Source of the DNA: Cenarchaeum sp.
GTDB taxonomy: Archaea; Thermoproteota; Nitrososphaeria; Nitrososphaerales; Nitrosopumilaceae
Assembly (NCBI GenBank): GCA_965242695.1
Contig: CBDESU010000001.1
Span: forward strand, 1,184,001-1,248,000
Length of the DNA: 64,000 nucleotides
Reading direction: 5' to 3'
Shown: positions 2 through 57,066 of the stretch, piece by piece
Layout of the letters: each line of letters begins with the position of its first letter
Position numbering within the stretch: the stretch's first letter is position 1
Notes under the pieces: model-generated
What the model saw: the letters and a program-made list of their open reading frames with translations, nothing else
The model's database searches: none
What the model was told of the DNA's origin: nothing
Program-made: the position numbers and the translations under genes

Positions 2-820
2 GAGGAGGCGATCGAGTCGTTCGGAGAGGCCGCCCGGCGCGACCCGTCGAGCGCCGATGCCCGGGTGGGGCTCGGCAACGCGCTAGGGGGGGGGGCCGGC
101 CTCGGCGACGAGGCGCTTGCGGCGTACGACAAGGCGCTGCGGGTCGACCCCGGCCACACGGCGGCGCACACGGCAAGGGGCCGGGCGCTGCTCGGGATGG
201 GCAGGAACGAAGAGGCGCTTGCGGCGTTCACGAGCGCAGCCCGGCTCGATCCCGGGCTGGCAGAGGCGCACGCCGGGAGGGGCCGCGCGCTGATCGGGAG
301 GGACATGCACAAGAGGGCGCTTGCGGCGTTCAAGAGGGCGGCCCGGCTCGATCCCGGAATGTACGAGGCGCGCGAGGGCATGGGCCGCGCGCTGCTCGGG
401 ATGGGCGTGGACAGGAGGGCGCTTGCGGCGTTCAAGAGGGCGGCCCGGATCGAGCCGAGGCGGCCGGATGCCCACATCGGGTGGGGCTATGCGCTGATCG
501 GGCTGAACTGGAACAAGAGGGCGCTTGCGGTGTTTTCAAGGGCCGTGGCGGCGGCCCCCGGCAACGGGCAGGCCCACTGCGGGCGCGCCGCGGCGCTGTA
601 CTTTCTCGGCCGGCACAAGATGGCTCTCGCATCCATCGACATGGCGGTCAGCCTGGATCCGGGCTCGGCCGCCGCGCACCTTGGGCGCGGCCGGATACTG
701 CATGCCCTGGGGCGGCGCGACGAGGGCGACGCCGAGATCGAGGAGGCAAAGAGGCGCCGAGCAGCATGGGGCGGGGCAGGCGGGAGCGCAGCGGGCAAGG
801 GGGCGGAGGGGCAGGCATAG
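2..820 (+). CDS. TPR-repeat protein, 5' truncated by window edge
   Basis: Open frame from position 2 (EEAIESFGEAARRDPSSADARVGLG) continuing into 34-aa ALAAF.RA.RLDP..A.AH.GRG.AL repeats; paralog of 1089 and 4268. Confidence 0.9.
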   Translation, partial: EEAIESFGEAARRDPSSADARVGLGNALGGGAGLGDEALAAYDKALRVDPGHTAAHTARGRALLGMGRNEEALAAFTSAARLDPGLAEAHAGRGRALIGRDMHKRALAAFKRAARLDPGMYEAREGMGRALLGMGVDRRALAAFKRAARIEPRRPDAHIGWGYALIGLNWNKRALAVFSRAVAAAPGNGQAHCGRAAALYFLGRHKMALASIDMAVSLDPGSAAAHLGRGRILHALGRRDEGDAEIEEAKRRRAAWGGAGGSAAGKGAEGQA

Positions 821-1059
821 CGGCGGCGGCATGGAGGACTTCCGGCGGATCAGGCCCGGCGCCGGCGGCAGGGCACGGGCGGCGCCCGCCGGCGCGTGCA
901 GGAACAACCCGCGGCGCCGAGAGAGGCCCGCTTCGGCGCATTTGATTCCCGGGCACCACGGCCGCGGGACGAGGGCGCCGGCAGGGCGGCACCACTGGTC
1001 TGCGCATCGCGCGCATACTCCCCTCGCGCCTGCCGCCCTCCGCCGGCCCTCCGCACCCC

Positions 1060-1065
1060 ATAAAT
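1060..1065 (+). promoter_or_regulatory. TATA box (GCACCCC-ATAAAT-CC)
   Basis: 29 nt before in-frame ATG 1089; motif recurs before most TPR genes. Confidence 0.75.
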
Positions 1066-1088
1066 CCGCCCCGCCCGGCGGCGGGCGC

Positions 1089-2177
1089 ATGGGCGCGGCA
1101 AGGAAGAGGGGCGCGGCAAGGGCGGGCGGAGCGCGGAAGGGAGGCGGCTCTGGGAAGGGAGGCGGCAATGACGGCGGCCCGCGCGTGATCGTAGCGTTCG
1201 GCACCGACATGGATCACCCGCCGCGGATCGGCGGAAGGAGGCGCGGCCCGGACGGCATTGCCGCATGCGAAGAGGCCGTCCGGCGCGACCCGGACGGCGC
1301 CGGCGCCCGCATGGATCTGGCCATAACCCTGGCCGCCGCCGGGCGCATCGAAGAGGCGGTCGGCGCGCTCGACGATGCCGATCGGCTCGACGGCCCCCGC
1401 CACGAGGCGCACGCCATGCGCGGTACGATTCTCACGAGCGCGTCGCGGCACGCCGAGGCCGTCGCAGCGTTCGAGGCGGCCGTCGCATCGGACCCGGGCT
1501 ACACCATGGGCCGCATCGCACTCGGAATGGAGCTCTTGCGCCTCGGCCGGCACGGGGATGCGATCGAGGCGTTCTGGGAGGCCGCCCGGCGCGACCCGTC
1601 GAGCGTGGACGCGCGGATCGGGCTCGGCAGCGCGCTCTCCGATGCCGGCCGCGGGGACGAGGCGGCCGCGGCGTTCGGCGAGGCCGCCCGGCTCGAACCC
1701 GGCAGCGCCGCGGTCCACATGTCGGCGGGCAGATCAATGCGCGGGGTGGAGAGGCACGAAGAGGCCCTTGCGTCGTACTCGAGGGCCGCGAGGATCGAAC
1801 CGACGCTGGCCGCGGCCCACTCCGGAAGGGGCCGCGCGCTGCTCGAGATGGAAGAGTACAAGAGGGCAGAGGCGGCGTTCAAGAGGGCCCTGGCCCTGGA
1901 TCCGGGCCGCGTCGGCGACCACCGCGGGCGGGCCATGGCGCTCCAGTTCCTCGGCCACTCCAAGAGGGCGCTCGAGGCCGTCGACGGGGCCGTCGCCGCA
2001 GATCCGCGCGACGTGGACGCGCATCTTGTGCGCTACGCGGTGCTCGTCAGCCTGGGGCGGCTCGGGGAGGCCAACGCCGAGATCAGGGAGGCCAAGAGGC
2101 TCGATCCCGACAGCAAGAACGTCGCGGTTGTCATGGAGGCGGTTCGAAGCGAGGCCGGGCGCACGGGCGGCAAGTGA
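1089..2177 (+). CDS. TPR-repeat protein
   Basis: About 8 TPR units; start moved from ORF-track 525 to ATG 1089 using TATA spacing. Confidence 0.9.
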   Translation: MGAARKRGAARAGGARKGGGSGKGGGNDGGPRVIVAFGTDMDHPPRIGGRRRGPDGIAACEEAVRRDPDGAGARMDLAITLAAAGRIEEAVGALDDADRLDGPRHEAHAMRGTILTSASRHAEAVAAFEAAVASDPGYTMGRIALGMELLRLGRHGDAIEAFWEAARRDPSSVDARIGLGSALSDAGRGDEAAAAFGEAARLEPGSAAVHMSAGRSMRGVERHEEALASYSRAARIEPTLAAAHSGRGRALLEMEEYKRAEAAFKRALALDPGRVGDHRGRAMALQFLGHSKRALEAVDGAVAADPRDVDAHLVRYAVLVSLGRLGEANAEIREAKRLDPDSKNVAVVMEAVRSEAGRTGGK

Positions 2178-2637: not shown

Positions 2638-4188
2638 ATGGGCCAGGAGGCCGAGGGCGGAAAGTGCAATAGTCAAAAGGCGGCCGCGGCCGCGGATCCT
2701 CCCGCCGCCGGCAGCGGGCGGCACAGGGACGGCCTTGCCGAGCACGACGAGGCCGTGCGCCGGAACCCGAAGGATGCCGGCGCGCATGCGGGGCGCGGCA
2801 AGGCCCTGATCGGCCTAGAGCGGCCCGAGGACGCGCTGGATGCGTACGGCGAGGCCGCCCGGCTCGAGCCGGGTGCCGCGGCGTGGCATGCGGGGCGCGG
2901 CAAGGCCCTGAGCCTCCTTGATCGCGAGGAAGAGTCCCTTGCCGCGTACGGCGAGGCCGTGCGGCTGGATCCAAGGGACGCCGGCGCGCACACAGGGCGC
3001 GGCGAGGCGCTGCTCTGCCTCGGCCGCCTCGAGGATGCGCTGGCCGCATGCGACGAGGCCGTGCGGCTCGAGCCCGACGGCGCGCCGGCCCTAGTCATGC
3101 GCGGCTGCGTCCTGCTCGAGATGTCGCGGCCCGGCAGGGCCGCGCGCGACTTCAAGGCGGCCTCGGCGGCCGATCCCGGCGATGTCGAGGCGCACCTGAT
3201 GCTCGGGGCCGCATACGAGGGCCTCGGCAGGTACGGGAGGATGATCGCATCGGTGAAGAGGGCCATACGGATCGAGCCCTCAAACGCCGCCGCGCATGTA
3301 ATGCACGGCAGGGCCCTGCTCCTGGCCGGCCGCGCCCGCAGATCCCTTGCCGCGTGCGACGAAGCCGTCCGGCTTGACGGCGCCATGTCCGCCGCCCACG
3401 AGTGGAGGGGCTGGGCGCTGGCCGCGATGGGCAGGGACAAGGGGGCGGTGGCCGCGTTCAAGGAGGCCGTGAGGCTCGAGCCCGGCAGCGCAGACGCCCA
3501 TCTTGGAATGGGGCTTTCGCTGCACGCGGCCGGCAGGCCAGGCAGGGCCCTGGCCGCGTACAGGGAGGCCGTGCGGCTAGAGCCCGACGGCGCGCATGCG
3601 CACAGGGCAATGGGCAAGGCGCTGCTCGAGACGGGCAGGCACAAGGGGGCGCTGGCGGCATACGGCAGGGCCGTGCGGCTCGAGCCGGGCTCGTGGGAGG
3701 GCCACTGCGGGAGGGGCGAGGCCCTCAGGGAGCTCGGCCGCCACAGGGAGGCGCTGGCCGCGCACAGCAAGGCCGCATCGCTCGAGCCCGACAGGGCAGA
3801 GGTCCACGTTCTGCGCGGCCTGACCCTCTCCGCCATGAAGCGCCACAAGAAGGCGCTGGCCTCGTACGACAGGGCTGCGCGGCTCGAGCCGGGCCTGGCG
3901 CTGACCCACCTCCGGCGCGGCTCGGAGCTGGGCAGCCTTGGCAGGCACGAGGAGGCGCTGGCCGCCCTTGACGAGGCCGAGCGGCTCGGCCTCGAGGCCG
4001 GGCGGCTCGGCCTTGAAGAGGCTGGCCTGTGCCTCGCCCGCGCCCGCGCGCTCTTCGGGCTCGGCCGCCCGAAAGAGGCCCGCGCGGCAATTGACAAGGC
4101 CGATCGCCTCGGGCCGGGCGGCAAGGGAATTGCAGGGCTGCGCGCGCTGATGGGCGGCCCTGCTGGGGCGGAGGGCGGCGGGGCGTAG
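2638..4188 (+). CDS. TPR-repeat protein (SRPGRAARDF subfamily)
   Basis: About 13 consecutive 34-aa TPR units. Confidence 0.92.
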   Translation: MGQEAEGGKCNSQKAAAAADPPAAGSGRHRDGLAEHDEAVRRNPKDAGAHAGRGKALIGLERPEDALDAYGEAARLEPGAAAWHAGRGKALSLLDREEESLAAYGEAVRLDPRDAGAHTGRGEALLCLGRLEDALAACDEAVRLEPDGAPALVMRGCVLLEMSRPGRAARDFKAASAADPGDVEAHLMLGAAYEGLGRYGRMIASVKRAIRIEPSNAAAHVMHGRALLLAGRARRSLAACDEAVRLDGAMSAAHEWRGWALAAMGRDKGAVAAFKEAVRLEPGSADAHLGMGLSLHAAGRPGRALAAYREAVRLEPDGAHAHRAMGKALLETGRHKGALAAYGRAVRLEPGSWEGHCGRGEALRELGRHREALAAHSKAASLEPDRAEVHVLRGLTLSAMKRHKKALASYDRAARLEPGLALTHLRRGSELGSLGRHEEALAALDEAERLGLEAGRLGLEEAGLCLARARALFGLGRPKEARAAIDKADRLGPGGKGIAGLRALMGGPAGAEGGGA

Positions 4189-4267: not shown

Positions 4268-5461
4268 ATGGGCGGCCCCGAGGGGAAAGGGGATGACGGA
4301 TTCAGCATAGACATCGAGATCGGCGGCGCAGACGGCCCTGCGGGGGCGACAGGGGAGCCGATCGTGCACGATCTTGCCGCCTGCGAGGACGCCGTCCGGC
4401 GCGACCCCGGCAGCTTTGGGGCCCGCATGGAACTGGCAGCCGCCCTGGCAGGCGCAGGGCGCACCGACGGCGCGCTCGCCGAGCTCGACATGGCGGCCAG
4501 GCTCGACGGCCCCCGCCACGATGCGATCGCCATGCGCGGCGCCGTGCTTATGGGCGCCTCGCGCCTCGACGAGGCCGTGCGCGCGTTCGAGTCGGCCATC
4601 AAGTCCGACCCGGACCACGTGGTGTTCCACATGGGGCGCGGGGTCGCATGCGCCGAGCTCGGCAGGCACGGGGATGCCGCCGAGTCGTTCGGCGAGGCGG
4701 CGCGGCTCAGCCCGTCGAGCGCGGACGCGCGGGTCGGGCTCGGCAACGCCCTGGGCAATGCCGGCCGCCCCGCCGAGGCCATTGCGGCGTACGACGAGGC
4801 GCTGCGGATCAACTCCGGCCACCCGGTGGCGCATTCAATGAAGGGGCGCGCGCTGCTCGGGATGGGCAGGAACGAAGAGGCGCTTGCGGCGTTCGCGAGG
4901 GCGGTGCGGATCGAGCCGAGGCTGACCGAGGCCCACGTCGGGAGGGGGCATGCGCTGCTCGGGATGGGCAGGAAGAAAAAGGCGCTCGGCGCGTTCGCGA
5001 GGGCCGCGCGGCTCAGCCCGAGGTATGCCGAGGCCCACGTCGGGAGGGGGCTGGCGCTGCTCGGGATGGGCAGGAAGAAAAAGGCGCTCGGCGCGTTCGC
5101 GAGGGCCGCTCGGATCGAGCCAGGGATGGCCAAGGCCCACCTCTGGAGGGGGCATGTCCTGCTCGGGATGGAGAGGTACAAGAAGGCGCTCGGCGCGTTC
5201 GCGAGGGCCGCATCCCTGCATCCGGGCAGCGAGGCGGCCCACTGCGGGCGCGCCGCGGCCCTCCATTTGCTGGGCAGGGATGAAAAGGCGCTCGCCGCCG
5301 CCGACAGGGCCGCAACCGTCGATCCGCGCTCGGCGGGCGCCCACAAGATGCGCGGCATCATACTGCAGGCCATGGGGCGGCACGGCGAGGGGGATGCCGC
5401 GCTCAAAGAGGCCGCAAGGTGCAAGTCCGGCGGCTCGGAGGGGCGGGCGCAGGCCCGCTGA
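4268..5461 (+). CDS. TPR-repeat protein
   Basis: About 10 TPR units, including near-identical GRKKKALGAFARAARL units. Confidence 0.92.
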   Translation: MGGPEGKGDDGFSIDIEIGGADGPAGATGEPIVHDLAACEDAVRRDPGSFGARMELAAALAGAGRTDGALAELDMAARLDGPRHDAIAMRGAVLMGASRLDEAVRAFESAIKSDPDHVVFHMGRGVACAELGRHGDAAESFGEAARLSPSSADARVGLGNALGNAGRPAEAIAAYDEALRINSGHPVAHSMKGRALLGMGRNEEALAAFARAVRIEPRLTEAHVGRGHALLGMGRKKKALGAFARAARLSPRYAEAHVGRGLALLGMGRKKKALGAFARAARIEPGMAKAHLWRGHVLLGMERYKKALGAFARAASLHPGSEAAHCGRAAALHLLGRDEKALAAADRAATVDPRSAGAHKMRGIILQAMGRHGEGDAALKEAARCKSGGSEGRAQAR

Positions 5462-5713: not shown

Positions 5714-6253
5714 GCCTCCGTCCAAAGGCGGCTAGGCACCTCGCGCTGCGGCCCGCAGGGCCTTCGTCGGCGCCGTGCCGGCCGTTCCCGTGTGGAACCC
5801 CGAGACTGTGGCTAGTGGGCATGGAATCGCCGTTTTTGTGCACGGCGCAGGCTACGCGCGGCAGGGCCGCGGCACCGAGCCACGCCACGGAGATACGCCT
5901 CGCAACAGGACAAAAATCAATATACGCCGGAGGCCAAGGGGCGTCCCCATGCAAGCAGTGACCAGCGCACCTCCCAGCGACGTGACAACCAGTCCGCCGC
6001 AACGCGTAGGCACGGCGCACCTGGTCGCCCGATCCTGCGGACGGCATCAACGTCTGGACTCCAGTCGCCGGCACATCCCGCCCTCGATGCAGATCCGGCC
6101 TTCGCAAGGGATCTTGCCGGCTGCAAATGCCAGCACCCTAGCGGGCCGTGCAGCTCTACGTCCGGCCCAGCGCCGCCGCACCAAGGCGACGCCGCGGTAC
6201 GCGATCACTGCACCGTGTCCGGGCCAGGGGATCGAGCGGGGGAGGACCGGCGC

Positions 6254-7012
6254 ATGAACCGCCAGCCGATCGACTTGGGGTTCATACTCCGGCAGTTTCC
6301 AAGGTTCGAGTTTTCAATGGCCAGCTTTGAGGACAGGCTCAGGGTGCAGAAGTTTGTCTACCTGCTGGAGTCGTTTGACGTCTACCTGGGGTACGAATAT
6401 TCGTGGTACCTGCGCGGGCCCTACTGCTCGACGCTGGCCGCGTCGGGGTTCGCGCTGGACGGATTCTACGCGCGAATACCGGAGAACCCCAACATGCACT
6501 TTTCAAAGCCCTCGGTGCACGAGCGTTTTGAGGGATTTAAGAGGTTCATAAGCGGCCGCGAGGCCGACATCGATTTCCTAGAAATGGCCGCGTCACTTCA
6601 CTTTCTGGAAAAAAGCGGCGGCCTCCCGCGCGCCCAGATCTTTGAGAGAGTCCTCAACAAGCGGCGGCCCAGATTTACCGAATCAGAGTGCCGCGAAGTG
6701 CAGGGATGCCTCGAGCAGTGGAAGCTTATAGGGGGTTCGGGCAACGAAGTGTCCAAGCCCGAATCGTGGTGTGCGTACGGAGACAAGCCGGGCGAGGAGT
6801 GGTTTGCCGAGGCGCCCGCTGTTCCAGAATCTATGGATCTCAGGCCCTTCGACAAGGGTCTCTACCACATGCTGCTAGACTCGAAGGAGGGGAACGAAAA
6901 GATCGTCCTGGTCGGAAGGGGCGTATTCAGGCCGGATCAGAGGCGCCCGCTCGTCGACGAGATTACTGTGGAGGACAAGCGCCTGCTAGTAGATCTAATC
7001 GAGCGAGGATGA
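6254..7012 (+). CDS. YwgA/SocA(Panacea, DUF4065)-like antitoxin-type protein with C-terminal extension
   Basis: RLRVQKFVYLL...GYEYSWYLRGPYCSTL...LEMAASLHFL matches the QKxxY / GPY / LE..AS pattern; ATG 6254 in an ATGA overlap; lower GC. Confidence 0.7.
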   Translation: MNRQPIDLGFILRQFPRFEFSMASFEDRLRVQKFVYLLESFDVYLGYEYSWYLRGPYCSTLAASGFALDGFYARIPENPNMHFSKPSVHERFEGFKRFISGREADIDFLEMAASLHFLEKSGGLPRAQIFERVLNKRRPRFTESECREVQGCLEQWKLIGGSGNEVSKPESWCAYGDKPGEEWFAEAPAVPESMDLRPFDKGLYHMLLDSKEGNEKIVLVGRGVFRPDQRRPLVDEITVEDKRLLVDLIERG

Positions 7013-9374: not shown

Positions 9375-9501
9375 AGTGGCGCGGCCGCGCCGGAGCCGCC
9401 GCGGGCAATCCCCCGCCGCCGCGCCTTCAGCCGCCGCCGCCGCGATCTACGCCTGCACGGACATCGTCGGACTGCACGGTTCACTCCCGGTGGAGTGGCC
9501 A

Positions 9502-26269: not shown

Positions 26270-26292
26270 CCCGACGCGCGGGCCGCGCGTGC

Positions 26293-38488: not shown

Positions 38489-38594
38489 GCGGGGAGCATG
38501 CAGGCGCCCGCGGGGACGGGCGGCGCCCGCGGGCCGGCGCTTCCGGCAGGGTCAATCCCGCGCGACATAAATCCCGCCCGGCGGGGCCGCGCCC

Positions 38595-46449: not shown

Positions 46450-46710
46450 TCCCGGCGCGCGGGCGCAATCGGGCCGCCCGGGGGCGGGGCGAGTGCGCGG
46501 CGCGGGGAGGATGCGGCGCGGGGAGAGAGAGACTAGGCCGCAGGAGGCTGGAAGATGCAATCGTGGCCCTCGGCAAGGACATCGGCATGCTTACGGCGGT
46601 TGAGCGACCCGCGCATGATGGACTGTGCGCCGCTTGTGTCTGGCAGGGTCGAGGTCGCCGAACGTTCAGATGGCAAAAAATACAAATAGGCGGACCCCGG
46701 CCGCGCTGCG

Positions 46711-48757: not shown

Positions 48758-48897
48758 GGCGGCGCGCCCGGCTCGGCCCTGTCCCATGCCCGCGCCTGCG
48801 GCCCTTTTCGTTCCGGATGCAGGGCGGCGCGCCCGGCTCGGCCCTGTCCCATGCCCGCGCCTGCGGCCCTTTTCGTTCCGGATGCAGGGCGGCGCGC
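48758..48897. repeat. 65-bp perfect tandem repeat x2.1
   Basis: Units at 48758, 48823 and a partial at 48888; intergenic. Confidence 0.9.
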
Positions 48898-49095: not shown

Positions 49096-50670
49096 ATGAA
49101 AGCGGCAGGGAAAAGGGAAGCGCAGGGGGCCGGGGACGCGGCATCCCTTGCCGCGTGCGACGAGGCCGTGCGGCGGGATCCAGGCGACGCCGGCGGCCAC
49201 AGGGGGCGCGCCGCGGCCCTGCTCAGACTGGGCCGCAGGGAAGAGGCACTGGCGGCGCTAGACGAGGCCGTGCGGCTCGACGGCACGGACACCGAGACCC
49301 TCACCGTGCGAGGCAACGTCCTGACGAGCCTTTCTCTGCCGGGAAGGGCGGTGCGCGACTTTAGGGCCGTAGTCAGGGCCGAGCCAGGCAACGCCGCGGC
49401 CCATACGCTCCTCGGTTCGGCGTACGCGCTGGCAGGGCGCCATCAAAGGGCGCTCGCGTCGCTCGATAGGGCCGTGCGGCTCGATCCAGGCGATCCGACT
49501 GCGCGCCTGGCGCGCGCCCAGGCCCTGCTCGAGGTCGGGCGCGACCGCAAGGCCCTTGCCGACTGCGACAAGGCCGTGCGAATTGACGGAACCGTTGCGA
49601 GGGCCCATGCGGGGAGGGGGCTTGCGCTGATCGCGCTGGGCAGGCACGAAGAGGCGCTGGCCGCATGCGGCGAGGCCCTGCGGCTCGAGCCCGGCATGGC
49701 AAAGGCGCACGCTGGAAGCGGCATGGCGCTGATCGCGCTGGGCAGGAACAAGAGGGCGCTGGCCGCGCTGGACGAGGCGGTCCGGCTCGAGCCCGGCATG
49801 GCCGCCGCCCACGCCTGGAGGGGCAGGGCGCTGATCGCGCTGGGCAGGAACAAGAGGGCGCTGGCCGCGCTGGACGAGGCGGTCCGGCTCGAGCCCGGGT
49901 CGATCGACGCGCGCCTGGAAATGGGCAGGGCGCTGATCGCGCTGGGCAGGAACAAGAGGGCGCTGGCCGCATACGGCAGGGCCGCTCGGACGGATCCGGA
50001 AGAGTCGAGGGCCCACGCCGGCAGGGGCACCGCGCTGATCGCGCTGGGCAGGCACGAAGAGGCGCTGGCCGCATGCGACGAGGCCGCGCGGATCGATCCC
50101 GGGTCGATCGATGCGCCCATAGGAAGGGGCAGGGCGCTGATCGCGCTGGGCAGGCACAAAGAGGCGCTCGCTGCGCTCGACAGGGCCGAATCCCTGAACC
50201 CCGACATTGCGCTGGTCCACAAAGAGCGCAGCGTGGCGCTGCGCTGGCTCGGCCGCCCCGAGGAGGCGCTCGCTGCGCTCGACAGGGCCGAATCCCTGTG
50301 CCATGACGAATGGGACGTCCACTTGGCGCGCGGCGAGGCGCTCCAGGACATGGGACGGCACGGCGAGGCCGTCGCCGCATGCGACAAGGCCGTCCGGCTC
50401 AGGCCCGGAGAGGCGAGGGCCCACTGCGTGCGAGGCGTGCCCCTCAGCTGCCTCGGGAGGTTCGGTGAGGCGCTCGCTGCGTGCGAAGAGGCTGCGGGGA
50501 TAAGCCCCGAGTCGGGCCACATTGTATGCGGGCGCGCCACGGCCCTTGCAGGGCTTGGCCGCATGAAGGAGGCGCTCGCTGCGTGCGAAGAGGCCGTCCG
50601 GCTCGAGCCGGACGACAGGTACGTCGCAAAGATCCGCGCGCAGGTGCGGCGCCTGGCCGCCGCATCGTAG
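49096..50670 (+). CDS. TPR-repeat protein
   Basis: About 14 TPR units with repeated ALIALGRNKRALAA; ATAAAT at 49008 but no start codon at the +28 position. Confidence 0.9.
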   Translation: MKAAGKREAQGAGDAASLAACDEAVRRDPGDAGGHRGRAAALLRLGRREEALAALDEAVRLDGTDTETLTVRGNVLTSLSLPGRAVRDFRAVVRAEPGNAAAHTLLGSAYALAGRHQRALASLDRAVRLDPGDPTARLARAQALLEVGRDRKALADCDKAVRIDGTVARAHAGRGLALIALGRHEEALAACGEALRLEPGMAKAHAGSGMALIALGRNKRALAALDEAVRLEPGMAAAHAWRGRALIALGRNKRALAALDEAVRLEPGSIDARLEMGRALIALGRNKRALAAYGRAARTDPEESRAHAGRGTALIALGRHEEALAACDEAARIDPGSIDAPIGRGRALIALGRHKEALAALDRAESLNPDIALVHKERSVALRWLGRPEEALAALDRAESLCHDEWDVHLARGEALQDMGRHGEAVAACDKAVRLRPGEARAHCVRGVPLSCLGRFGEALAACEEAAGISPESGHIVCGRATALAGLGRMKEALAACEEAVRLEPDDRYVAKIRAQVRRLAAAS

Positions 50671-50965: not shown

Positions 50966-52237
50966 CGCGGGCTTGAATTTTTTGGCATGTTTGTGCCTGC
51001 GGCTGCCTGCCTATCGAGGGCGCACCCGTTTGCCTGCGCGGGCCGCTCGACGTCCGGCCCGCTCACACGCCCGGCGTCTGGATCCATGTTTGGGTTATAT
51101 ACGGGTGGCTGGCGTCTTTGTTGGCGGATCCTTGGGCAGGTATCGCGATCATCGTTGGGGGTGTTGTGCTTGTCATGGTCGGGTTTGCGTTCTTTGCGAG
51201 GTCTAGTTTGGGGGCTTGGATGCTCGGGATGGCGTTTATGATCATGGGTGCCGTGGTTTCGGCTGCCGGGGCCGTGGTGCTTGCGCTTGGGCGGCGTCGC
51301 TTACCGGGCGCTCTTGTGGGCGCTCCTGTGGGCGCGCCCGCCCTGCCACGTGGTGACGATCGCGGCATCCGGCCCGGTGTTTGGATCGGTATTGTGCAGG
51401 TTGTCGTGGGTGTTGCGATTATGCCACTCTGGTCGTCGTCGACGACTTTCGCTCTGGGTTTGAGTCTTTTTGGTCTGTTCCCATCGGGGGCTATGTTCAT
51501 TGTGTTATTGCGTGCCAAGGGCAGTCGCCTGTCGGCTTTGCGCTATAGGCTGGTCGTGGCGATCGTGGCGTTGGTGTTTGTGCTCGTGGCGCCATTGTTG
51601 CCGTACGCACCGTCAGGGCCCGATCGGGCTGACATGGTGTCGGTGGTGAGTGATGAGTATTCACTGTTGATGTCAGCTGCGGCTGAACGCGGTCGGAGTG
51701 GGCCCGATGCGGAGGCGGTGGCTTCAATGATTGTCGGGGATGCGCGGGTTGAATGTGACATTGTGAAGGAAGAGTATGCAGAGGTGAAAACGAGGGTGGA
51801 TGATGCGATAATGGGAGTCGCATCGGGGGGATCCTACGGAGGAGAGTGGGATGCGGGCGTGACTTTGCTCTACAGTGATGAGTGTCTTGTTGCTTATGTG
51901 AATAAGGATGCTCCGGGTGATCGTAATGTGCCATATCGTATGAATGATATGGTCCGCGCTGGTCTCATGATGTATGGTGCGTTTCCGCTTGATTGTGAGA
52001 TACTTCGGTATGCGCACGGTGATGCTGGCATGACGGTTGATATGGGCAGGCTTGGATTTCCACCGCCGGATTTTATGTCGGATTTGGACGTGGCTCGTGA
52101 TAAAGCGGTATGGAGTTTTTACAAGTCCATGAAGGCCTCTGGCGATTGCTAGTGGTGGGTGGCATCTGGACGGCTGTCGTTCGGGTGCCCCGCCGGACGG
52201 CGCGGGCTTGAGTTTTTTGGCATGTTTGCGCCTGCGG
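50966..52237. repeat. 37-bp direct repeats (50966-51002, 52201-52237) bracketing a low-GC gene
   Basis: cgcgggcttgaRttttttggcatgtttgYgcctgcgg, 35/37 identical. Confidence 0.85.
51118..52152 (+). CDS. Membrane protein (about 5 TM segments + soluble C-terminal domain), atypical codon usage
   Basis: Hydrophobic segments in the first 165 aa; TTATAT at 51095; many T-ending codons, lower GC. Confidence 0.78.
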   Translation: MLADPWAGIAIIVGGVVLVMVGFAFFARSSLGAWMLGMAFMIMGAVVSAAGAVVLALGRRRLPGALVGAPVGAPALPRGDDRGIRPGVWIGIVQVVVGVAIMPLWSSSTTFALGLSLFGLFPSGAMFIVLLRAKGSRLSALRYRLVVAIVALVFVLVAPLLPYAPSGPDRADMVSVVSDEYSLLMSAAAERGRSGPDAEAVASMIVGDARVECDIVKEEYAEVKTRVDDAIMGVASGGSYGGEWDAGVTLLYSDECLVAYVNKDAPGDRNVPYRMNDMVRAGLMMYGAFPLDCEILRYAHGDAGMTVDMGRLGFPPPDFMSDLDVARDKAVWSFYKSMKASGDC

Positions 52238-52499: not shown

Positions 52500-54197
52500 C
52501 TAGTCCCCGCCCTGCGCGCCCGGCGACGCCCTACGTCCCGCCAGCCGCGCAGCCTCGCCGAACGCGGCGCGCGCCCCCTGGCTGTCACCCAGAGTCCGCA
52601 GCGTGTTGCCGCGCAGCGTGTGCCAGTCCGGCTTGTCCGGCTCCAGGCGGACGGCCTCGTCGCATGCGGCAAGGGTCTCCGAGTGGCGTCCGAGCAGCCG
52701 CAGCGCAATGCAGCGCCCCGCGTGGCCGCCGGCCCTCTCTGGGCCCAGGCGGACGGCCTCGTCGAACGCGGCAAGTGCGTCGCCTCGGCGGTCCAGCGGA
52801 ACCAGCGCGAATCCGCGCGCCTCGTGCATGGCGGCATTGTCCGGATCGAGTCGGACGGCCTCGTCGAACGCGACAAGGGCGTCGGCGTGGCGGCCCAGGT
52901 AGAACAGCGCCCTGCCGCGCGTCTCGTGCGCGCTCGGTACGCCGGGATCGAGCCGGATCGCCTCGTCCAGCGAGGCAAGGGCGTCGGCGTGGCGGCCCAG
53001 GGCGAACTGGATCCTGCCGCACCCCTCGCGCCAGGCCGGGACGCCTGCATCCAGGCAGACGGCCTCGTCTAGCGCGGCGAGCGCATCCTCGAGTCTCCCC
53101 ATGGCGAACAGCGCCTCGCCGCGGCCCGCGTGGCCGTTCGGTATGCCTCGCTCCAGGCGGACGGCCCCGTCGAATGCGACAAGTGCGTCGGCGTGGCGGC
53201 CCAGGGCCAGCAGCGCCCTGCCGCGGCCCTCGTGCCCGAGCGCGTTGTCCCGATGCAGTCCGACGGCCCCGTCGAATGCGGCAAGTGCGTCGGCGTGGCG
53301 GCCCAGGGCCAGCAGCGCCCTGCCGCGGCCCTCGTGCCCGAGCGTCATTTCCGGGTCCAGTCCGACGGCCTCGTCGAACGCGGCAAGGGCATCGGCGTGG
53401 CGGTCTAGGTAGTGCAGGGACCTGCCGCGGCCCTCGTGCGCCCCGGCGCGCCCCGGGTCCAGGCGGACGGCCTCGTCGAACGCGGCAAGTGCGTCGGCGT
53501 GGCGGCCCAGGCTGCGCAGGGCCCAGCCGCGCTCCTCGTGCATGTCGGCGCCCTCGGGGTCCAGGCGGACGGCCTCGTCGAGCGCTGCCAGGGCATCGGC
53601 GTGTCGCCCGAGCCCGGCCAGGGCCGCGCCGCGGCCCGCGTGGCTGGCAGAGGTGCCGGGGGCAAGGCGGACGGCCTCGTCGAGCGCCTCAAGGGACTCT
53701 GCATCGCGGCCAAGCTGGTGCAGCGTCCAGCCGCGGCCCGCGTGGCCGGCGGCGCCCTCGGGATCCAGGCGGGCGGCCTCGTCGAACGCGGCAAGGGCAT
53801 CGTCGTCGCGGCCGAGGTAGAACATCGCCTTGCCGCGGCCCGCGTGGCTCTTGGAATCGCTCGGATCCAGGCGGACGGCCTCGTCGAACGCGGCAAGGGC
53901 ATCGTCGTGGCGATCGAGGACAAGCAGCGCCGCGCCGCGGCCCGCGTGTCCGGCGGCGCTGCCGGGATCCAGGCCGACGGCCTCGTCGAACGCGGCCAAG
54001 GCATCGTCGTGGCGGCCGAGGCGGTACAGGGCCACGCCGCGGCCCGCGCGGCATTCGGAGTCGCTCGGGGCAAGTCTTGCGGCCTCGTCGAACGCGGCAA
54101 GGGCATCGGCAGGGGCGTCCCTTTTGAGCGCCTCGCGGCCCCCGGCAACAAGCCGGCTGCGCTGCTCGGCGTCCCTGCCGCATTCCGTGCCGTCCAT
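52500..54197 (-). CDS. TPR-repeat protein (HADALAAFDEA subfamily)
   Basis: Minus-strand ATAAAT 54225-54220, 28 nt before ATG; about 16 TPR units. Confidence 0.92.
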   Translation of the reverse strand: MDGTECGRDAEQRSRLVAGGREALKRDAPADALAAFDEAARLAPSDSECRAGRGVALYRLGRHDDALAAFDEAVGLDPGSAAGHAGRGAALLVLDRHDDALAAFDEAVRLDPSDSKSHAGRGKAMFYLGRDDDALAAFDEAARLDPEGAAGHAGRGWTLHQLGRDAESLEALDEAVRLAPGTSASHAGRGAALAGLGRHADALAALDEAVRLDPEGADMHEERGWALRSLGRHADALAAFDEAVRLDPGRAGAHEGRGRSLHYLDRHADALAAFDEAVGLDPEMTLGHEGRGRALLALGRHADALAAFDGAVGLHRDNALGHEGRGRALLALGRHADALVAFDGAVRLERGIPNGHAGRGEALFAMGRLEDALAALDEAVCLDAGVPAWREGCGRIQFALGRHADALASLDEAIRLDPGVPSAHETRGRALFYLGRHADALVAFDEAVRLDPDNAAMHEARGFALVPLDRRGDALAAFDEAVRLGPERAGGHAGRCIALRLLGRHSETLAACDEAVRLEPDKPDWHTLRGNTLRTLGDSQGARAAFGEAARLAGRRASPGAQGGD

Positions 54198-54590
54198 GCG
54201 TGCAGGCCGAACGCGCTGAATTTATGCCGTGCGGCCGGCAGGCAGGTCGTGCAGTCCGCGGCCGCGGGGGAGGCAGGGGGCGCCCTAGCGGGCGCGGCGA
54301 TCGAAGGCATTCCCCCGGCGGGGCGGATCCCGTCCCGGCCGGCTTTGGGAGGGGCATCGCGCCGCCGGCCCGCGCGGGGCCTCGTGCGGCGGCAGGGGCG
54401 CCCAGGGTCGCCCGCAGGGAGGCACGGCTCCGGCCCATTGCGCCCCGCGGGCGCTGCGCGGCTCTTCGCAGGACATCCCGCGGCTCGGCGGCGGACGGGC
54501 CCCGATCACTCCCCCCCCCAGAAAAAATGCCCGCTGCGGGGAGAAAGCCTGGACGGAACGGCATAAATCGAACCCGCCCGGCGCGCCCGC

Positions 54591-56027
54591 ATGGGCGGCG
54601 CTGCGGACGACGGAAGCAAAAGTAATGCCGCCCCGCGCGCGCACGGGGGACTCGGCGGCGCCTCGCCCGAAGAGAAGAGGAGAATGCCCAGCGAGGCGTC
54701 GCCTGCCGCGTTCGAGATCGGGGCGGGCCCCGTCCCCGGCAGCGCCGCGGCGCACAGGGGGCGCGGCGATGCCCTGGCGGGCCTCGGCCGCTACGAGGAG
54801 GCGCTTGCCGCGTTCGACGAGGCCGCAAGGCTCGATCCCGGCAGTTCCGCGGCGCACGCCGGGCGGTGCGGGGCCCTGATCAACCTCAAGCGCTACGAGG
54901 AGGCGCTTGCCGCGTGCGAAGAGGCCGTGCGGCTCGACGGATCCAACCACGCGGCCGCCGTGCTGCGCGGCGCGGCCCTCGTGTCCCTCTTGCGGTTCGA
55001 CGAGGCGGCGCGCGGCCTGGAAGCGGCGGCCAAGGCCGACCCCGGCAGCGCCGACGCGCACCACCTTCTTGGAATGGCGCGCGCCGGCGCCGGCGACCTG
55101 CACGGGGCGCTCGGCTCGTTCGGCAGGGCCGTGCAGTGCAATGCGCGCGATCCGCGCCTGCGCGTCACGTACGGCAACGCGCTGATCAAGGCGGGCCGCG
55201 CCGGCGAGGCCCTCGCCGAGTACGACGAGGCCGCAAGGCTCGACGAATCCTCGGCCGATGCCCATGCCGGAAGGGGCGTCGCGCTGCTCACCGGGGGCAA
55301 ACCGAGGGAGGCGCTCGCCGCGTTCACGAGGGCCGCGCGGCTCGATCCCAGTCTGTTCGAGGCGCACGTCGGGATGGGCCGCATACTCCTCGATGCGGGA
55401 AGGCACCGCAGGGCGCTCGCCGCGTTCACGAGGGCCGCGCGCATAAGCCCCGACGATCCCAACGTCCACGCTGGAAGGGGCGGCGCGCTGCTCGGCGCCG
55501 GAAGGCACCGCAGGGCGCTAGCCGCCCTAAAAAGGGCCGCATCGCTCGATCCCGGCAACTCGGTCATACCGTACAAGATGGGCGAGGCGCTGCGCGCGCT
55601 CGGCCGCGACGGGGAGGCGCTCGCCGCGTTCGAGAGGGCCGTGTCGCTGGAGCCGCGCGCGTTCGAGCCGCACTACGCGCGCAGCGAGGCGCTGCTTCAC
55701 ATGGGGCGCGCCGGCGAGGCCCTCGAGGCGTGCGACGAGGCCGCAAGGCGCGGCCCCCGCATCGGAGCAATCCACAACCTGCGCGGCCTCGTCCTCGGCA
55801 GGCTAGGCAGGCACGGGGAGTCGCTTGCCGCCTACGACGAGGCGGCGCGGCTCGAGCCCAGCTCGGGCCATGTCCTGTGCGGCCGCGGCGCGGCGCTTGC
55901 AAGCCTCGGCCGCCTGGACGAGGCGGCAGCCGCGTTCGACGAGGCGGCGCGGCTCGAGCCGGGCGACAGGTACGTCGCAAAGGCGCGCGCCGGCGTCATG
56001 CGCGCGGCGGCCGGCGGCATGCGATGA
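54591..56027 (+). CDS. TPR-repeat protein
   Basis: ATAAAT at 54563 (28 nt); about 12 TPR units. Confidence 0.92.
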   Translation: MGGAADDGSKSNAAPRAHGGLGGASPEEKRRMPSEASPAAFEIGAGPVPGSAAAHRGRGDALAGLGRYEEALAAFDEAARLDPGSSAAHAGRCGALINLKRYEEALAACEEAVRLDGSNHAAAVLRGAALVSLLRFDEAARGLEAAAKADPGSADAHHLLGMARAGAGDLHGALGSFGRAVQCNARDPRLRVTYGNALIKAGRAGEALAEYDEAARLDESSADAHAGRGVALLTGGKPREALAAFTRAARLDPSLFEAHVGMGRILLDAGRHRRALAAFTRAARISPDDPNVHAGRGGALLGAGRHRRALAALKRAASLDPGNSVIPYKMGEALRALGRDGEALAAFERAVSLEPRAFEPHYARSEALLHMGRAGEALEACDEAARRGPRIGAIHNLRGLVLGRLGRHGESLAAYDEAARLEPSSGHVLCGRGAALASLGRLDEAAAAFDEAARLEPGDRYVAKARAGVMRAAAGGMR

Positions 56028-56079
56028 CGTCCCGCGCCATGGCACGGCATAAATCCGGCGCATGGGCGGGTCGGCACGA

Positions 56080-57066
56080 ATGGGCGCTGTTCAGGACGGC
56101 AGTCGGAATCGGCGCGGGGAGGCGGCCCGCGGGCCGGACCCCGGCATCGGCACTCCCCCAGTGCCCGGCGCGATAGAAAGGGCGGGGGCAGAGCTTGCAG
56201 AGGCCTTCAAGGGCGTCATGGACGCCGGCAGGATGACGGACCGCGCCGGCAGGGCCGTCGATGCGATGGACGAGGCGCTGCGGGTAGAGGGAGAGCATCC
56301 CATAGCCCGCGTCGCGAGGGGCTATGCGAGCCTCATCAGGGGCGACTATGCAGGGGCGCTGGCCATGTTCGACGACATCCTGCGCGCCGATCCCGAAATG
56401 TTCGAGGCGCACGCCGGAAGGGGCGAGGCGCTTCTCAAGGCGGGGCGCCCCAAGAGGGCCCTCGCCGCGTTCAGCAGGGCCGCGCGCATCAATCCCGAAA
56501 TGTTCGAGGCGCACGCCGGAAGGGGCGAGGCGCTTCTCAAGGCGGGGCGCCCCAAGAGGGCGCTCGCCGCGCTCGACAGGGCCGCATCGCTCGCGCCCGG
56601 CGGCTTTGGCATCCACCTCAAGCGGGGCGAGGCGCTGCGCGTGCTCGGCCGCCCCAAGAGGGCGCTCGCCGCGCTCGACAGGGCCGCATCGATTGAGGGG
56701 AACGTGTGGACGGTGCACCTTGAGCGCGGCAGGGCCCTCCAGGACGCCGGGAGGACGGACGAGGCGCTTGCCGCGCTCGACAGGGCAGGATCCCTCGGGC
56801 CGGACCGCCACGAAGTGCCCACCGTGCGCGGCAACGTGCTCCTGAAAGCAAAGAGGTACGGCGAGGCGCTTGCGGCGTACGACGAGGCGGAGCGCCTCGG
56901 CGCCCTTGCGGCCACAGTCCAGATAGGGCGCTCCGCCGCCCTTGTCGGAATGGACCGCCTCGGCGATGCCCTTGCCGTCTTGGACAAGGCGAATCGTCTC
57001 GATCCTGGCGACAAGAAAATTGCCGAGATGCGAAGGCTGGTAGAAATCAGGATGCGGGGCAGGTAG
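56080..57066 (+). CDS. TPR-repeat protein
   Basis: ATAAAT at 56049; ATG 56080 fits the spacing better than ATG 56062; duplicated PEMFEAHAGRGEALLKAGRPKRALAA. Confidence 0.88.
   Translation: MGAVQDGSRNRRGEAARGPDPGIGTPPVPGAIERAGAELAEAFKGVMDAGRMTDRAGRAVDAMDEALRVEGEHPIARVARGYASLIRGDYAGALAMFDDILRADPEMFEAHAGRGEALLKAGRPKRALAAFSRAARINPEMFEAHAGRGEALLKAGRPKRALAALDRAASLAPGGFGIHLKRGEALRVLGRPKRALAALDRAASIEGNVWTVHLERGRALQDAGRTDEALAALDRAGSLGPDRHEVPTVRGNVLLKAKRYGEALAAYDEAERLGALAATVQIGRSAALVGMDRLGDALAVLDKANRLDPGDKKIAEMRRLVEIRMRGR

Follow-up and report, generated by a model that had tools for sequence, protein, structure and literature searches.

TPR genes of the window and their neighbours

The window, meaning the whole stretch of 64,000 nucleotides analysed here (C1:1184001-1248000 of the genome designated G000), contains 17 stand-alone all-TPR genes and three genes in which TPRs are fused to other domains, besides a frameshifted TPR pseudogene and a 5' fragment (Table 1), and our own HMM of the 34-aa unit returns the same counts as an earlier note on this DNA, which had listed 17 TPR-only genes of 7-21 units and three fusions. 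This HMM gives 239 unit matches in the window, 230 of them within 20 genes; these represent 230 of the 925 TPR units of the genome in about 1.65% of its length, a strong clustering that agrees with the note's expectation that the TPR genes are not spread evenly. A lineage-specific island of all-TPR solenoid protein genes reaches its highest density in the window, whose genes belong to a wider TPR-rich region of about 143 kb (343 units in 150 kb, equal to 3.9% of the genome) that stops about 2 kb before a tRNA-Asn gene and a ribosomal-protein operon, and in which 30 of 32 island ORFs share one orientation. The genome contains about 100 TPR ORFs in total, with a genome share of 4.27%. The host, an ammonia-oxidising archaeon that is associated with sponges and stands close to Cenarchaeum, has a 3.9-Mb genome that includes amoA, and two studies contributed runs, labelled sponge metagenome, in which the locus is present. 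Many other families are also amplified in this doubled genome.

In the 17 TPR-only genes the units are tiled end to end without space for a further domain, and neither the unit tiling nor Pfam and NCBIfam revealed an NTPase or effector domain in them; the best partial NCBIfam matches of T10 (LcrH/SycD, PrsT and PilW among them) are below or near the cut-offs and generic for TPRs. The N-domain of fusion F1 occurs in 8 copies in the genome, and the F2 and F3 modules are 94.6% identical over 2055 nt. That the TPR genes carry no signal peptide, as previously claimed, is upheld by a crude Kyte-Doolittle test of the first 60 aa (not a signal-peptide predictor), which finds none of the TPR gene products hydrophobic at the N-terminus: the maximal 15-residue mean is at most 0.97 for the TPR genes versus 2.81 and 2.91 for two secreted/membrane proteins of the window.

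Table 1. Features of the window (positions counted within the window)
Feature	Position	Strand	Remarks
T01, TPR-only	2-820	+	8 units; 5' end and promoter just upstream of window; cassette C1:1183576
T02, TPR-only	1089-2177	+	9 units; TATA motif 1059, start 30 nt on
T03, TPR-only, conserved 3-unit core module	2638-4188	+	14 units; TATA 2609
T04, TPR-only	4268-5461	+	11 units; TATA 4239
265-aa protein, no assigned function, multi-copy family	6215-7012	+	No Pfam/NCBIfam match; ~12 tblastn places in genome
BbrUII/HgiDII-family GHKL restriction enzyme	7420-9374	+	ORFs 7420-8877 and 8898-9374, different frames
Frameshifted TPR pseudogene	9495-10156	+	Two overlapping ORF pieces; 6 unit matches outside called genes
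ImmA/IrrE (Peptidase_M78)	10509-11666	+	Pfam E 3.2e-16; PADLOC capP/RmrA-like
DUF4411, partner of ImmA/IrrE	11712-12131	+	Pfam E 3.6e-17
T05, TPR-only	12515-13576	+	8-9 units; TATA 12486
1615-aa protein	14552-19399	-	Hydrophobic N-terminus (Kyte-Doolittle 2.81); Gly/Asn-rich repeats; no Pfam match
T06, TPR-only, core module	19548-20942	+	11-12 units; TATA 19518
T07, TPR-only, longest	21157-23391	+	21 units; TATA 21128
Copy of T08 promoter and 5' end	23878-24163	+	98% identical to 26249-26533
Small type II R-M pair	24224-25527	-	REase 24224-24733; N4/N6 methyltransferase from 24730
T08, TPR-only, core module	26293-28305	+	18 units; TATA 26263
F1, fusion	28586-30868	+	N-domain of ~210 aa without assigned family, 14-16 TPRs (Pfam TPR)
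Small unassigned protein, two copies	31085-32569	-	31085-31609 and 32117-32569, remnant between; no Pfam match
Decayed R-M module copy	32867-34145	-	Methyltransferase broken (split ORFs); 90% identical to 24464-25747
T09, TPR-only	34200-35066	+	7-8 units; TATA 34171
DUF3800 gene	~35818-36600	-	E 1.3e-7, 32.9 bits vs cut-off 21; start not fixed
Cassette example, T10	36792-36825	+	CATAAATCC, ATGGGCGG 29 nt downstream
T10, TPR-only, core module	36821-38488	+	15 units; recent 2.4-copy unit duplication; NCBIfam matches TPR-only
T11, TPR-only, core module	38595-40142	+	14 units
T12, TPR-only	40344-41912	-	14-15 units; nearest paralogue of T15, colinear with it in C-terminal half
T13, TPR-only	42226-44163	+	13-16 units; two TPR blocks with Gly-rich linker between; Pfam: TPR families only
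F2, fusion, and PIN-like gene	44450-46449	+	Fusion 44450-45850; 2 TPRs and unassigned C-domain; codon 2 of PIN-like gene is a stop
F3, fusion, and intact PIN-like gene	46711-48710	+	Fusion 46711-48111; tandem duplicate of F2 module
T14, TPR-only, core module	49096-50670	+	15 units; TATA motif ~90 nt upstream
Membrane protein, lower G+C	51118-52152	+	No family match
T15, TPR-only	52500-54197	-	16 units; TATA 54226
T16, TPR-only, core module	54591-56027	+	11-13 units; TATA 54562
T17, TPR-only, last in island	56080-57066	+	7-8 units; TATA 56048; alternative ATG 56062
tRNA-Asn	59135-59211	-	Island boundary; sister-species colinearity resumes here

The genes previously listed as mixed in with the TPR genes were confirmed for R-M, ImmA/IrrE, DUF3800 (a gene overlooked by a GC3-based gene caller) and the GHKL restriction enzyme, which is split; the PIN-like genes are weakly supported, Pfam PIN matching two of six paralogues (best E 0.003), and no HEPN was found in the ORFs scanned. 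The two BbrUII/HgiDII ORFs cover positions 1-492 and 508-659 of the NCBIfam profile NF050001, with PADLOC REase_II and HATPase_c_3 matches, and because they lie in different frames this enzyme is regarded as broken, as are one R-M copy and one PIN-like gene. The R-M pair is supported by PADLOC REase_II (E 3.4e-9) and Pfam N6_N4_Mtase (27.6 bits versus a cut-off of 26.7). Judging from its sequence, the 1615-aa protein, whose gene contains tandem repeats at 15663-15973, is probably a secreted or surface protein; an 8081-aa ORF and a repetitive stretch of about 18 kb are also found in the same region. Paralogues of the small proteins at 31085-32569 adjoin two other F1-type genes. No conserved partner gene was found for the TPR genes.

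A duplicated cassette and its variable face

Most TPR genes carry one promoter/start cassette, composed of GCATAAATCC, about 21 nt and ATGGGCGG, and their layout consists of the TATA-like GCATAAATCC 29-30 nt before ATGGGCGG, a short Gly-rich N-terminus, 7-21 uninterrupted 34-residue TPRs and a tail of about 17 residues, which we read as a putative C-terminal capping helix. The TATA motif lies 29-32 nt upstream of the start in 14 of the 16 window stand-alone genes examined (29-30 nt in 13 genes), and the cassette, with this TATA-to-ATG distance, suggests leaderless transcripts of single genes. A looser version of the cassette pattern occurs 19 times in the genome, 18 times at the 5' end of a TPR ORF and once at a TPR 5' fragment, with 17 occurrences inside the island; a stricter one occurs 15 times in G000, 11 times in the sister species G004 and not at all in three other congeners. 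Among the congeners scanned, the cassette occurs outside this genome only in one sister species, in its syntenic island. Every TPR gene stands as a unit of its own, derived from a single duplicated cassette.

Tandem Repeats Finder detects a 102-nt periodicity throughout, and the window unit consensus, AAAHAGRGRALLALGRHKEALAAFDEAARLDPGS, bears out the common framework that had been described. The seven most variable unit positions in the window are 9, 13, 5, 2, 34, 17 and 12, and in G004 the seven are identical (Spearman 0.96 versus the window). Positions 2, 5, 9, 12, 13 and 34 are canonical concave-face TPR positions; six of the seven most variable positions thus belong to the seven that Magliery and Regan assign to the concave face. 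Variability therefore sits at canonical concave-face positions over a fixed scaffold, as the earlier note had proposed, with the mapping resting on canonical TPR numbering and not on a model because two structure predictions reached pLDDT of only 52 and 47. At positions 2, 5, 9, 12 and 13 dN/dS is 1.26 (1.07-1.47), 0.98 (0.69-1.34) or 0.96 (0.85-1.08), according to which pair set is used, versus 0.34-0.40 at the 25 framework positions; loop positions (1, 17, 33 and 34) are also near 1, like the concave sites, and pN/pS between nearest units is 0.65 overall. The scaffold positions are under purifying selection and the concave-face positions change about as fast as synonymous sites, that is, roughly neutrally; relaxed constraint would explain the dN/dS near 1 of the variable sites as well as diversifying selection would.

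Unit-level duplication, claimed previously, is evident from three Tandem Repeats Finder arrays within single genes: 29963-30759 (7.8 copies, 99% identity, about eight near-identical 102-nt units of F1), 36918-37159 (2.4 copies, 95%, T10) and 56390-56585 (1.9 copies, 95%). Besides these, tracts of 60 nt or more with at least 88% identity amount only to four segmental duplications and a copy of one gene's 5' end, which together with the T08 original flanks the R-M pair on both sides. No such tract links two full TPR genes, and unit colinearity between paralogues is limited to two gene pairs; 223 of the 343 units have their closest counterpart in a different gene of the same island. Recent exchange between paralogues, and with it the proposal that the island is diversified by recombination, thus found no support by this search, and instead of the reported five or more TPR remnants we saw one pseudogene, one 5' fragment and two weak single-unit matches. 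Gene birth and death did hold, given the duplications, the pseudogene, the fragment and the clustering of paralogues by species described below: duplication adds both genes and units to the family, and decay removes members from it.

Sister species and other strains

The G004 island (317 units) adjoins the equivalent tRNA-Asn gene and ribosomal-protein operon, and only this operon (80-87% nucleotide identity) and one methyltransferase remnant can be aligned between the two loci; with the exception of that remnant, the nuclease and toxin neighbours are not conserved. When 19 core modules are placed in a tree, no supported terminal clade mixes genomes, and there are two label changes versus 6.4 in shuffles (0 of 500 shuffles as low); as the paralogues cluster by species this points to birth-and-death turnover. 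The TPR family radiated separately in two sister species at an equivalent chromosomal site. One TPR protein used as query has 140 matches in the 3.9-Mb genome, 142 in a 3.7-Mb and 51 in a 3.2-Mb genome, versus 2-25 in the ten other genomes of the family (0.8-2.0 Mb), congeners of 1.8-2.0 Mb having 8. Structural variability among strains, which the earlier note anticipated, was not seen: in the 10 kb compared, other strains proved colinear, and their Logan contigs have an unchanged unit number in the parts covered.

Interpretation of the island

We favour, with a probability of roughly 0.45, the reading that the island is a symbiont's 'eukaryotic-like' protein-binding repertoire, the targets of which would most likely be host (sponge) proteins. 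The TPR products would be soluble protein binders made in the cytoplasm and differing in specificity, and their targets may most likely be sponge proteins, e.g., of the recognition or phagocytic machinery, as suggested by the 'eukaryotic-like protein' paradigm of sponge symbionts. They might reach the sponge by lysis, vesicles or some other export route, any such route being conjecture since neither a secretion signal nor an export system for the TPR proteins is evident, and the R-M, toxin-like and DUF3800 genes would be ordinary cargo of a flexible genome region and not functional partners. Such a repertoire, which the earlier note gave as its alternative, would fit the sponge association and the phyletic pattern. 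Gene expansions of this kind are already known from symbionts, and an immune-system role is not demonstrated.

The earlier note offered, as its other option, receptors acting with shared effectors in trans, i.e., an antiviral library in which stand-alone TPRs bind virus proteins and signal to nucleases or toxins, encoded close by or at other loci, as a split Avs/NLR-like system. A variable face that is the ligand face, a species-specific turnover such as an arms race predicts and the interspersed R-M, ImmA/IrrE-DUF4411, PIN-like and DUF3800 genes would all suit this, as would the fact that four of nine ImmA/IrrE genes outside the island have a TPR ORF no more than 5 kb away and that three TPR proteins elsewhere in the genome are fused to Schlafen/AlbA_2 (one of them also to TIR), owing to which TPRs may also serve defence in this genome. 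Nevertheless, the trans-acting immune-receptor reading is not supported and we consider it unlikely: the 17 genes are without NTPase, effector or other domain and each has its own promoter and no conserved partner, the neighbours are partly broken and, the methyltransferase remnant excepted, missing from the G004 island, other strains retain gene order and unit number in the parts covered, and outside the island the neighbour families are not linked to TPR genes, 7 of 35 copies lying within 5 kb of them versus 16% expected (P=0.33).

It is similarly improbable that the TPR proteins are internal scaffolds or chaperones binding the archaeon's own proteins, for example to escort or assemble giant secreted proteins or other amplified families, because housekeeping would not predict about 100 paralogues, a near-neutral binding face and complete turnover between sister species, and the 1.8-2.0 Mb congeners manage with 8 matches; such a role would nonetheless suit the giant ORFs and repetitive stretch of the region, the partial matches of T10 to TPR chaperones and assembly factors and the lack of signal peptides, which fits a cytoplasmic function. 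Non-adaptive proliferation, in which a self-duplicating cassette spreads by unequal recombination in a symbiont where selection is weak, most of the copies being functionless or nearly so, would account for the overall pN/pS, the variable-site dN/dS of about 1, the pseudogenes and fragments, the co-orientation expected of tandem duplication and the amplification of many other families. This too we doubt, given the constraint at the framework positions, the 17 genes open from cassette to tail versus about two decayed, the cassette kept across two species and the stable unit number in the Logan contigs of other strains.

Dozens to more than 100 repeat-protein genes, often in flexible regions of host-associated genomes, are also seen in Amoebophilus, Legionella and Orientia, where the presumed targets of TPR/SEL1 and ankyrin expansions are proteins of the host; dedicated secretion systems exist in those bacteria, and none is evident in the archaeon for the TPR proteins. 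The host-directed repertoire favoured here has a close parallel in the TPR 'eukaryotic-like proteins' of sponge symbionts, among them those of 'Ca. Cenporiarchaeum stylissum', which, in the available portions of the sources, are likewise a sponge-associated, TPR-only expansion relative to free-living relatives, lie beside R-M and toxin-antitoxin genes and, as here, have a function assigned by analogy only (PMC6697440, PMC7848895). According to the same portions, TPR orthologous groups are enriched in a sponge thaumarchaeon belonging to this clade and were interpreted as host interaction (PMC6697440), and a comparative study saw no ELP pattern shared by sponge Thaumarchaeota (PMC7848895). Those descriptions do not include the scale and organisation seen here, with a ~143-kb island near tRNA-Asn, about 100 TPR ORFs, one cassette and two sister radiations. 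As a counterpoint to the host-directed reading, TPRs also occur in free-living Thaumarchaeota.

TPR sensor arms are found in the Avs/STAND NLR-like antiviral proteins, and the island shares with them TPR arrays with a variable binding face for recognition and a location among defence-type genes; membership was tested and rejected, the island polypeptides having no STAND NTPase, effector domain or conserved operon partner. CTPRs, the designed consensus TPR arrays, resemble the island proteins in their long uninterrupted near-consensus 34-residue arrays with an apparent capping helix at the end, a comparison made by sequence (models of pLDDT 52 and 47), whereas the island genes are natural and vary in a position-specific manner. 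In the brown alga Ectocarpus, the part of the account available describes fast-evolving NB-ARC-TPR candidate receptors, likewise a large TPR-array family with hypervariable repeats and a proposed recognition repertoire, which differ from the island genes, where we found neither an NTPase nor recent exchange between paralogues, in their NB-ARC domain and TPR exon shuffling (PMC3341825).

Anatomy, common cassette and extent of the TPR genes

Genes in the window were called by hand from third-position G+C and repeats were counted with a 34-residue unit HMM built from the genome of the organism itself (G000), which gave 239 unit matches, 230 of them inside 20 genes. These comprise the 17 stand-alone TPR genes with 7–21 units each that the earlier note had proposed (T01–T17) as well as its three fusion genes, F1, in which an N-domain without known family precedes 14–16 TPR units, and F2 and F3, in which two TPRs are followed by a C-domain without known family. 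The TPR-only genes follow a single plan consisting of a Gly-rich N-terminus of about 12–80 residues, an unbroken series of units of 34 residues each and, at the end, some 17 residues (at most 28 aa) that we read as a putative C-terminal capping helix; only in T13 is the series interrupted, by a Gly-rich linker.

The TPR motif is defined by small or hydrophobic residues at positions 8, 11, 20, 24 and 27 and by Pro at 32, and this pattern is carried by the 230 window units (G8 77%, L11 87%, A20 90%, F/Y24, A27 95%, P32 84%) in 102-nt arrays running throughout the genes, with gapless 34-aa tiling and a consensus that agrees with the one framework described earlier. Public libraries were scanned with four of the 20 genes, the remainder being assigned by our own unit HMM: F1 and T13 match TPR_1, TPR_2, TPR_16 and other Pfam families (E 1e-59 to 1e-84), F2 exceeds the cut-off of TPR_19 (Pfam), and the NCBIfam matches of T10 are to TPR families only. 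For T09 a single-sequence AlphaFold2 prediction shows helices throughout, at a poor pLDDT of 52.3. A hydrophobic N-terminus, present in two control proteins of the window, is absent from every TPR gene, in keeping with the reported lack of signal peptides. TPR remnants do occur, but rather than the five or more claimed they amount to one frameshifted pseudogene, one copy of the 5' end of T08 and two weak single-unit matches.

The genes also share a start cassette, in which the motif ..GCAC(C/G)GCATAAATCC.. is followed about 21 nt on by ATGGGCGG. Of the 16 window genes examined, 13 have a TATA-like box that begins 29–30 nt ahead of the start codon, and in T17 the distance is 32 nt; no motif was detected by script for T13 and T14, the latter having one about 90 nt upstream. 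In archaeal promoters such spacing goes with leaderless transcripts, which suggests that the TPR genes may be transcribed as leaderless mRNAs. Genome-wide the cassette was found 19 times, 18 times at the 5' end of a TPR ORF and once at the T08 fragment, and 17 of these lie in the island, the TPR-rich region of about 143 kb of which the window is the densest part. A stricter pattern gave 15 matches in G000, 11 in the nearest sister species, G004 (all at C2:2.228–2.434 Mb), and none in the congeners G001, G002 and G003.

The genome (3,887,671 bp in two contigs, 67–68% G+C) contains an archaeal amoA gene, and compares with 0.8–2.0 Mb for other members of the family and 1.8, 2.0, 3.2 and 3.7 Mb within the genus. 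According to the unit HMM it holds 925 TPR units spread over 135 ORFs (100 with at least three units), and these ORFs sum to 166,197 nt or 4.27% of the genome. The 150 kb at C1:1,098,000–1,248,000 (3.9% of the genome) account for 343 units, with 30 of 32 TPR ORFs on the + strand, and the window (C1:1184001–1248000) for 230. TPR matches number 140–142 in the 3.9- and 3.7-Mb genomes versus 2–25 in ten family genomes of 0.8–2.0 Mb, so that, by match counts compared within the family, there is an expansion over relatives as in the eukaryotic-like protein (ELP) repertoires of sponge symbionts. Residence in sponges, a further mark of such repertoires, is seen in the colinearity of the locus in sponge-metagenome runs at 1–8% divergence; a 10-kb part of it has a share of 0.40–0.61 in runs that two studies deposited under the label sponge metagenome and of 0.61–0.92 in runs of two coded organisms. 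None of the public runs listed for this part is an RNA run.

Features of the window and related loci in G000 (window positions unless a contig is given)
Feature	Position	Strand	Remarks
Frameshifted TPR pseudogene	9495-10156
Copy of T08 promoter and 5' end	23878-24163		286 nt
F1	28586-30868		TPR fusion
F2	44450-45850		TPR fusion
F3	46711-48111		TPR fusion
DUF3800 gene	35818-36600	-	family search
Small type II R-M pair			with decayed second copy; family matches and identity between copies
BbrUII/HgiDII-family GHKL restriction enzyme			broken, its two parts being in different frames
ImmA/IrrE with DUF4411
PIN-like genes			two, one with stop at codon 2
1615-aa protein, probably secreted
Membrane protein
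Several genes without family assignment
tRNA-Asn	59135-59211	-
F2/PIN-like copies, window	44450-48710
F2/PIN-like copies, tandem	C1:1327103-1338325		five
F1-type gene with small-protein pair	28586-32569; C1:590962-594914; C1:1004664-1009080		small proteins of the 31085-31609 family
TPR-Schlafen/AlbA_2 proteins	C2:329535-335207; C2:489005-492574; C2:387344-390604
Tandem family and 8081-aa ORF	C1:1126837-1135546; C1:1147356-1171601		wider island
Repetitive left flank (L024)	C1:1078001-1098000		stretch of about 18 kb

Variable positions, growth and turnover of the family

Across the 230 window units entropy is highest at positions 9, 13, 5, 2, 34, 17 and 12 (3.4–3.9 bits) and lowest at 27, 20, 16, 11, 32, 8 and 15, and the 317 units of G004 have an identical top seven (Spearman 0.96 versus the window). 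Magliery and Regan give TPR positions 2, 5, 9, 12, 13, 33 and 34 as the most variable, all of them on the concave ligand face (PMC1261162). Six of the seven top positions of the window are among these, and the variability pattern is therefore that of TPRs in general. Helix-B positions 22 and 23, at about 1.5 bits in the island versus about 3.0 bits in dispersed genes, are more conserved than in the latter, which fits the island being a younger subfamily.

Selection was estimated from nearest-neighbour pairs of 34-codon units and not from orthologues. For positions 2, 5, 9, 12 and 13 dN/dS was 1.26 in 121 island pairs (95% bootstrap 1.07–1.47), 0.98 in 36 closer pairs (0.69–1.34) and 0.96 in 324 genome-wide pairs (0.85–1.08); the 25 framework positions gave 0.34–0.40, and the loop positions 1, 17, 33 and 34 values like those of the face. 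The ligand face therefore evolves at about the neutral rate, with weak positive selection at most; the value above 1 is unsafe, because the pairs were chosen by identity and codon bias is strong. The expected concentration of variability on the groove is thus borne out in that the canonical face positions vary most, but loop positions behave alike and the pattern is general to TPRs.

Recent duplication events are few. They consist of an array of 7.8 unit copies at 99% in F1, 2.4 copies in T10 and 1.9 in T17 and, beyond single units, the R-M module (90%), the F2-PIN module (94.6% over 2055 nt), the small-protein module and the T08 5' fragment. If the unit repeats of F1 and T10 are set aside, different full TPR genes share no tract with an identity of 88% or higher and a length of 60 nt or more, and neither does the window share one with other parts of the genome. 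The units of any one gene have matches in many different genes at 45–75% identity, with colinearity clear for T12/T15 and T04/T01 only, and the family therefore appears to have grown by duplication and divergence, not by recent exchange. Gene conversion between paralogues was considered and rejected for want of such tracts; the scattered best matches of neighbouring units (45–75%) are indistinguishable from noise, and the recombination-diversified library with mosaic units that had been envisaged is not borne out by these comparisons.

In G004, the nearest species (S4e identity 88%), an island of 317 units in 26 ORFs (260 kb examined) likewise adjoins tRNA-Asn and the ribosomal-protein operon, but as a mirror image. 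Alignments of at least 78% over at least 400 nt between the two regions are limited to the operon (80–87% nucleotide identity) and a methyltransferase remnant (78%). No TPR units were found in the 40 kb beside the ribosomal-protein operons of G001, G002 and G003. For 223 of the 343 island units the nearest unit belongs to a different gene of the island; for 56 it is part of the same gene, for 35 it is a G004 unit and for 29 it is found at other places of G000. In a maximum-likelihood tree of the core module, a conserved three-unit stretch (11 G000 and 8 G004 copies), all supported terminal clades are genome-specific, with two label changes versus 6.4 for shuffled labels (0 of 500 shuffles as low). 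The family has therefore turned over after the split of the two species. Homogenisation of its members within each genome would be the alternative, but recent tracts that would show it were not seen.

Among the strains compared the locus is structurally stable. Logan contigs from four runs were compared over 34000–44400: two of the runs show no difference from the window, a sponge-metagenome run keeps the order at about 1–2% divergence (one of its contigs, at 37130–40590, which includes the greater part of T10, the whole of T11 and the T12 end, has a net length difference of 4 nt), and the fourth differs by about 1–8%. A 102-nt length change was seen in none of these contigs over that part, contrary to the suggestion that the locus varies in structure among strains. 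Among the 12 indels listed of 24, those of 1 nt at 35190–36633 and 44265 lie outside TPR ORFs, and T09 has one in-frame 3-nt deletion. Contig joints were rejected as structural variants, their sides being 20–32 nt long and inside repeats, and are taken as assembly-graph effects. The locus itself is real, since independent short-read assemblies confirm it.

Neighbouring genes and the possible role of the TPR proteins

Of defence genes the window has an intact small R-M pair and an ImmA/IrrE gene with its DUF4411 partner, besides a BbrUII enzyme, another R-M copy and a PIN-like gene that are all disrupted. The putative HEPN gene of the earlier note was not recovered in the ORFs scanned. The DUF3800 gene has atypical codon-position G+C and may be decaying in some strains, because these carry 1-nt indels in and around it (e.g. 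36204). F2 and the PIN-like gene form a two-gene family of 15 copies, ten other places being occupied besides the window and the tandem group, and could be a toxin-antitoxin-like or selfish module; the 56 database relatives of F2 are all at least 59% identical to it. Premature stops occur in three PIN-like copies (the first window copy, L119 and L125). A PDB-sequence profile search with the PIN-like family returned nothing below E 0.078, its ESM Atlas look-alikes are leads only, and a single-sequence AlphaFold2 model of the protein is poor (pLDDT 47.4). The N-domain of F1 has 8 copies in the genome, ImmA/IrrE 10 and the 6215–7012 protein about 12, and F1-type genes with their adjoining pair of small proteins may constitute a conserved module.

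These neighbour families have 35 copies outside the island, of which 7 have a TPR ORF no more than 5 kb away, as against 16% of random points (P=0.33); for ImmA/IrrE alone the figure is 4 of 9. We read the neighbouring genes as cargo, not partners.

No genomic signature of sponge symbiosis is cited more often than the expansion of repeat proteins, and to our knowledge the function of these proteins has hardly been tested, and in archaea never. The reading we favour, with a probability of about 0.45, is a host-interaction repertoire, in which the TPR products would be soluble binders of differing specificities and their targets host proteins. TPR enrichment with a host-interaction reading is already in print for a sponge thaumarchaeon of the same clade (PMC6697440), and another study reports no common ELP pattern in sponge Thaumarchaeota (PMC7848895). 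Neither the island nor its cassette nor the doubled genomes turned up in our literature search, outside which the supplementary tables of both papers fell.

Antiviral sensing in trans, as the earlier note proposed with shared effectors, appears unlikely. TPR-effector fusions exist in the organism, as three long TPR proteins elsewhere in the genome carry Schlafen/AlbA_2 domains, one of them also TIR (TIR_2), and these look like candidate defence proteins of the same TPR flavour, but they are not in the island. The TPR-only genes differ from Avs/NLR-like systems in lacking a STAND NTPase, an effector domain and a conserved operon partner: beyond the TPR units there is room only for an N-terminus of up to 80 aa and the short tail, Pfam and NCBIfam return TPR families only for those scanned, and no nuclease, protease or TIR domain is present. 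Each gene has its own promoter and the neighbours are not kept in G004, which, with the absence of linkage outside the island, speaks against effectors shared in trans. One scan of viral contigs, by a method reaching close relatives only, gave no viral relatives of T12. An internal scaffolding role is to our mind improbable, and there is only a small chance of mostly non-adaptive proliferation, with which a near-neutral face would agree, as against a framework at dN/dS 0.34–0.40.

A more far-reaching reading, which we regard as less likely than not, would be a genuine solenoid-binder repertoire (some 30 genes in the island and 100 genome-wide) under one leaderless cassette, which each species would renew as genes are born and die while only the ligand face changes, and which would recognise non-self, whether host phagocytic or recognition proteins or viruses. 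If true, no innate 'binder library' would have been described in Archaea before it. The closed genome reveals what short-read bins hide, namely that TPR genes take up about 4% of a doubled thaumarchaeal genome and stand in an island with a single cassette and a fixed scaffold. It provides a defined set of candidate natural binders with mapped variable residues for pull-downs of sponge or viral proteins, and a clear archaeal case for studying gene-family birth and death.

Flanks of the island and other repeats

Between the TPR blocks of the wider island lie a second tandem family, of about 430 aa and at least four copies starting MDDRAYE, and an ORF of 8081 aa whose N-terminus is hydrophobic. 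The repetitive left flank, probably one giant gene, has 72% identity to the middle of the G004 island and several matches beside the G002 ribosomal-protein operon. An integrase-borne element at tRNA-Asn was rejected, the single tyrosine-recombinase match of the genome (Phage_integrase, C1:2156197) being far from the island. F2 and PIN-like matches at C1:15920–17931 and C2:1662378–1664368 have identical statistics, and the two contig ends (C1 start, C2 end) may for this reason overlap.

At the right end of the window stands an archaeal ribosomal-protein operon, the names of whose proteins are presumed from our own reading of the translations. One of them (62375–63481, - strand), which we take from its KOW motif to be L24, has a C-terminal tail of about 170 residues, nearly all Asp with scattered Leu (TRF array 62412–62915). 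Another, read as L5 (60850–61626, - strand), has in its N-terminal extension 5.6 perfect 33-nt copies coding STAGQPAPAAE (61371–61554). A perfect 65-nt tandem duplication of 2.2 copies (48758–48897) lies in the spacer that separates T14 from the second PIN-like gene.
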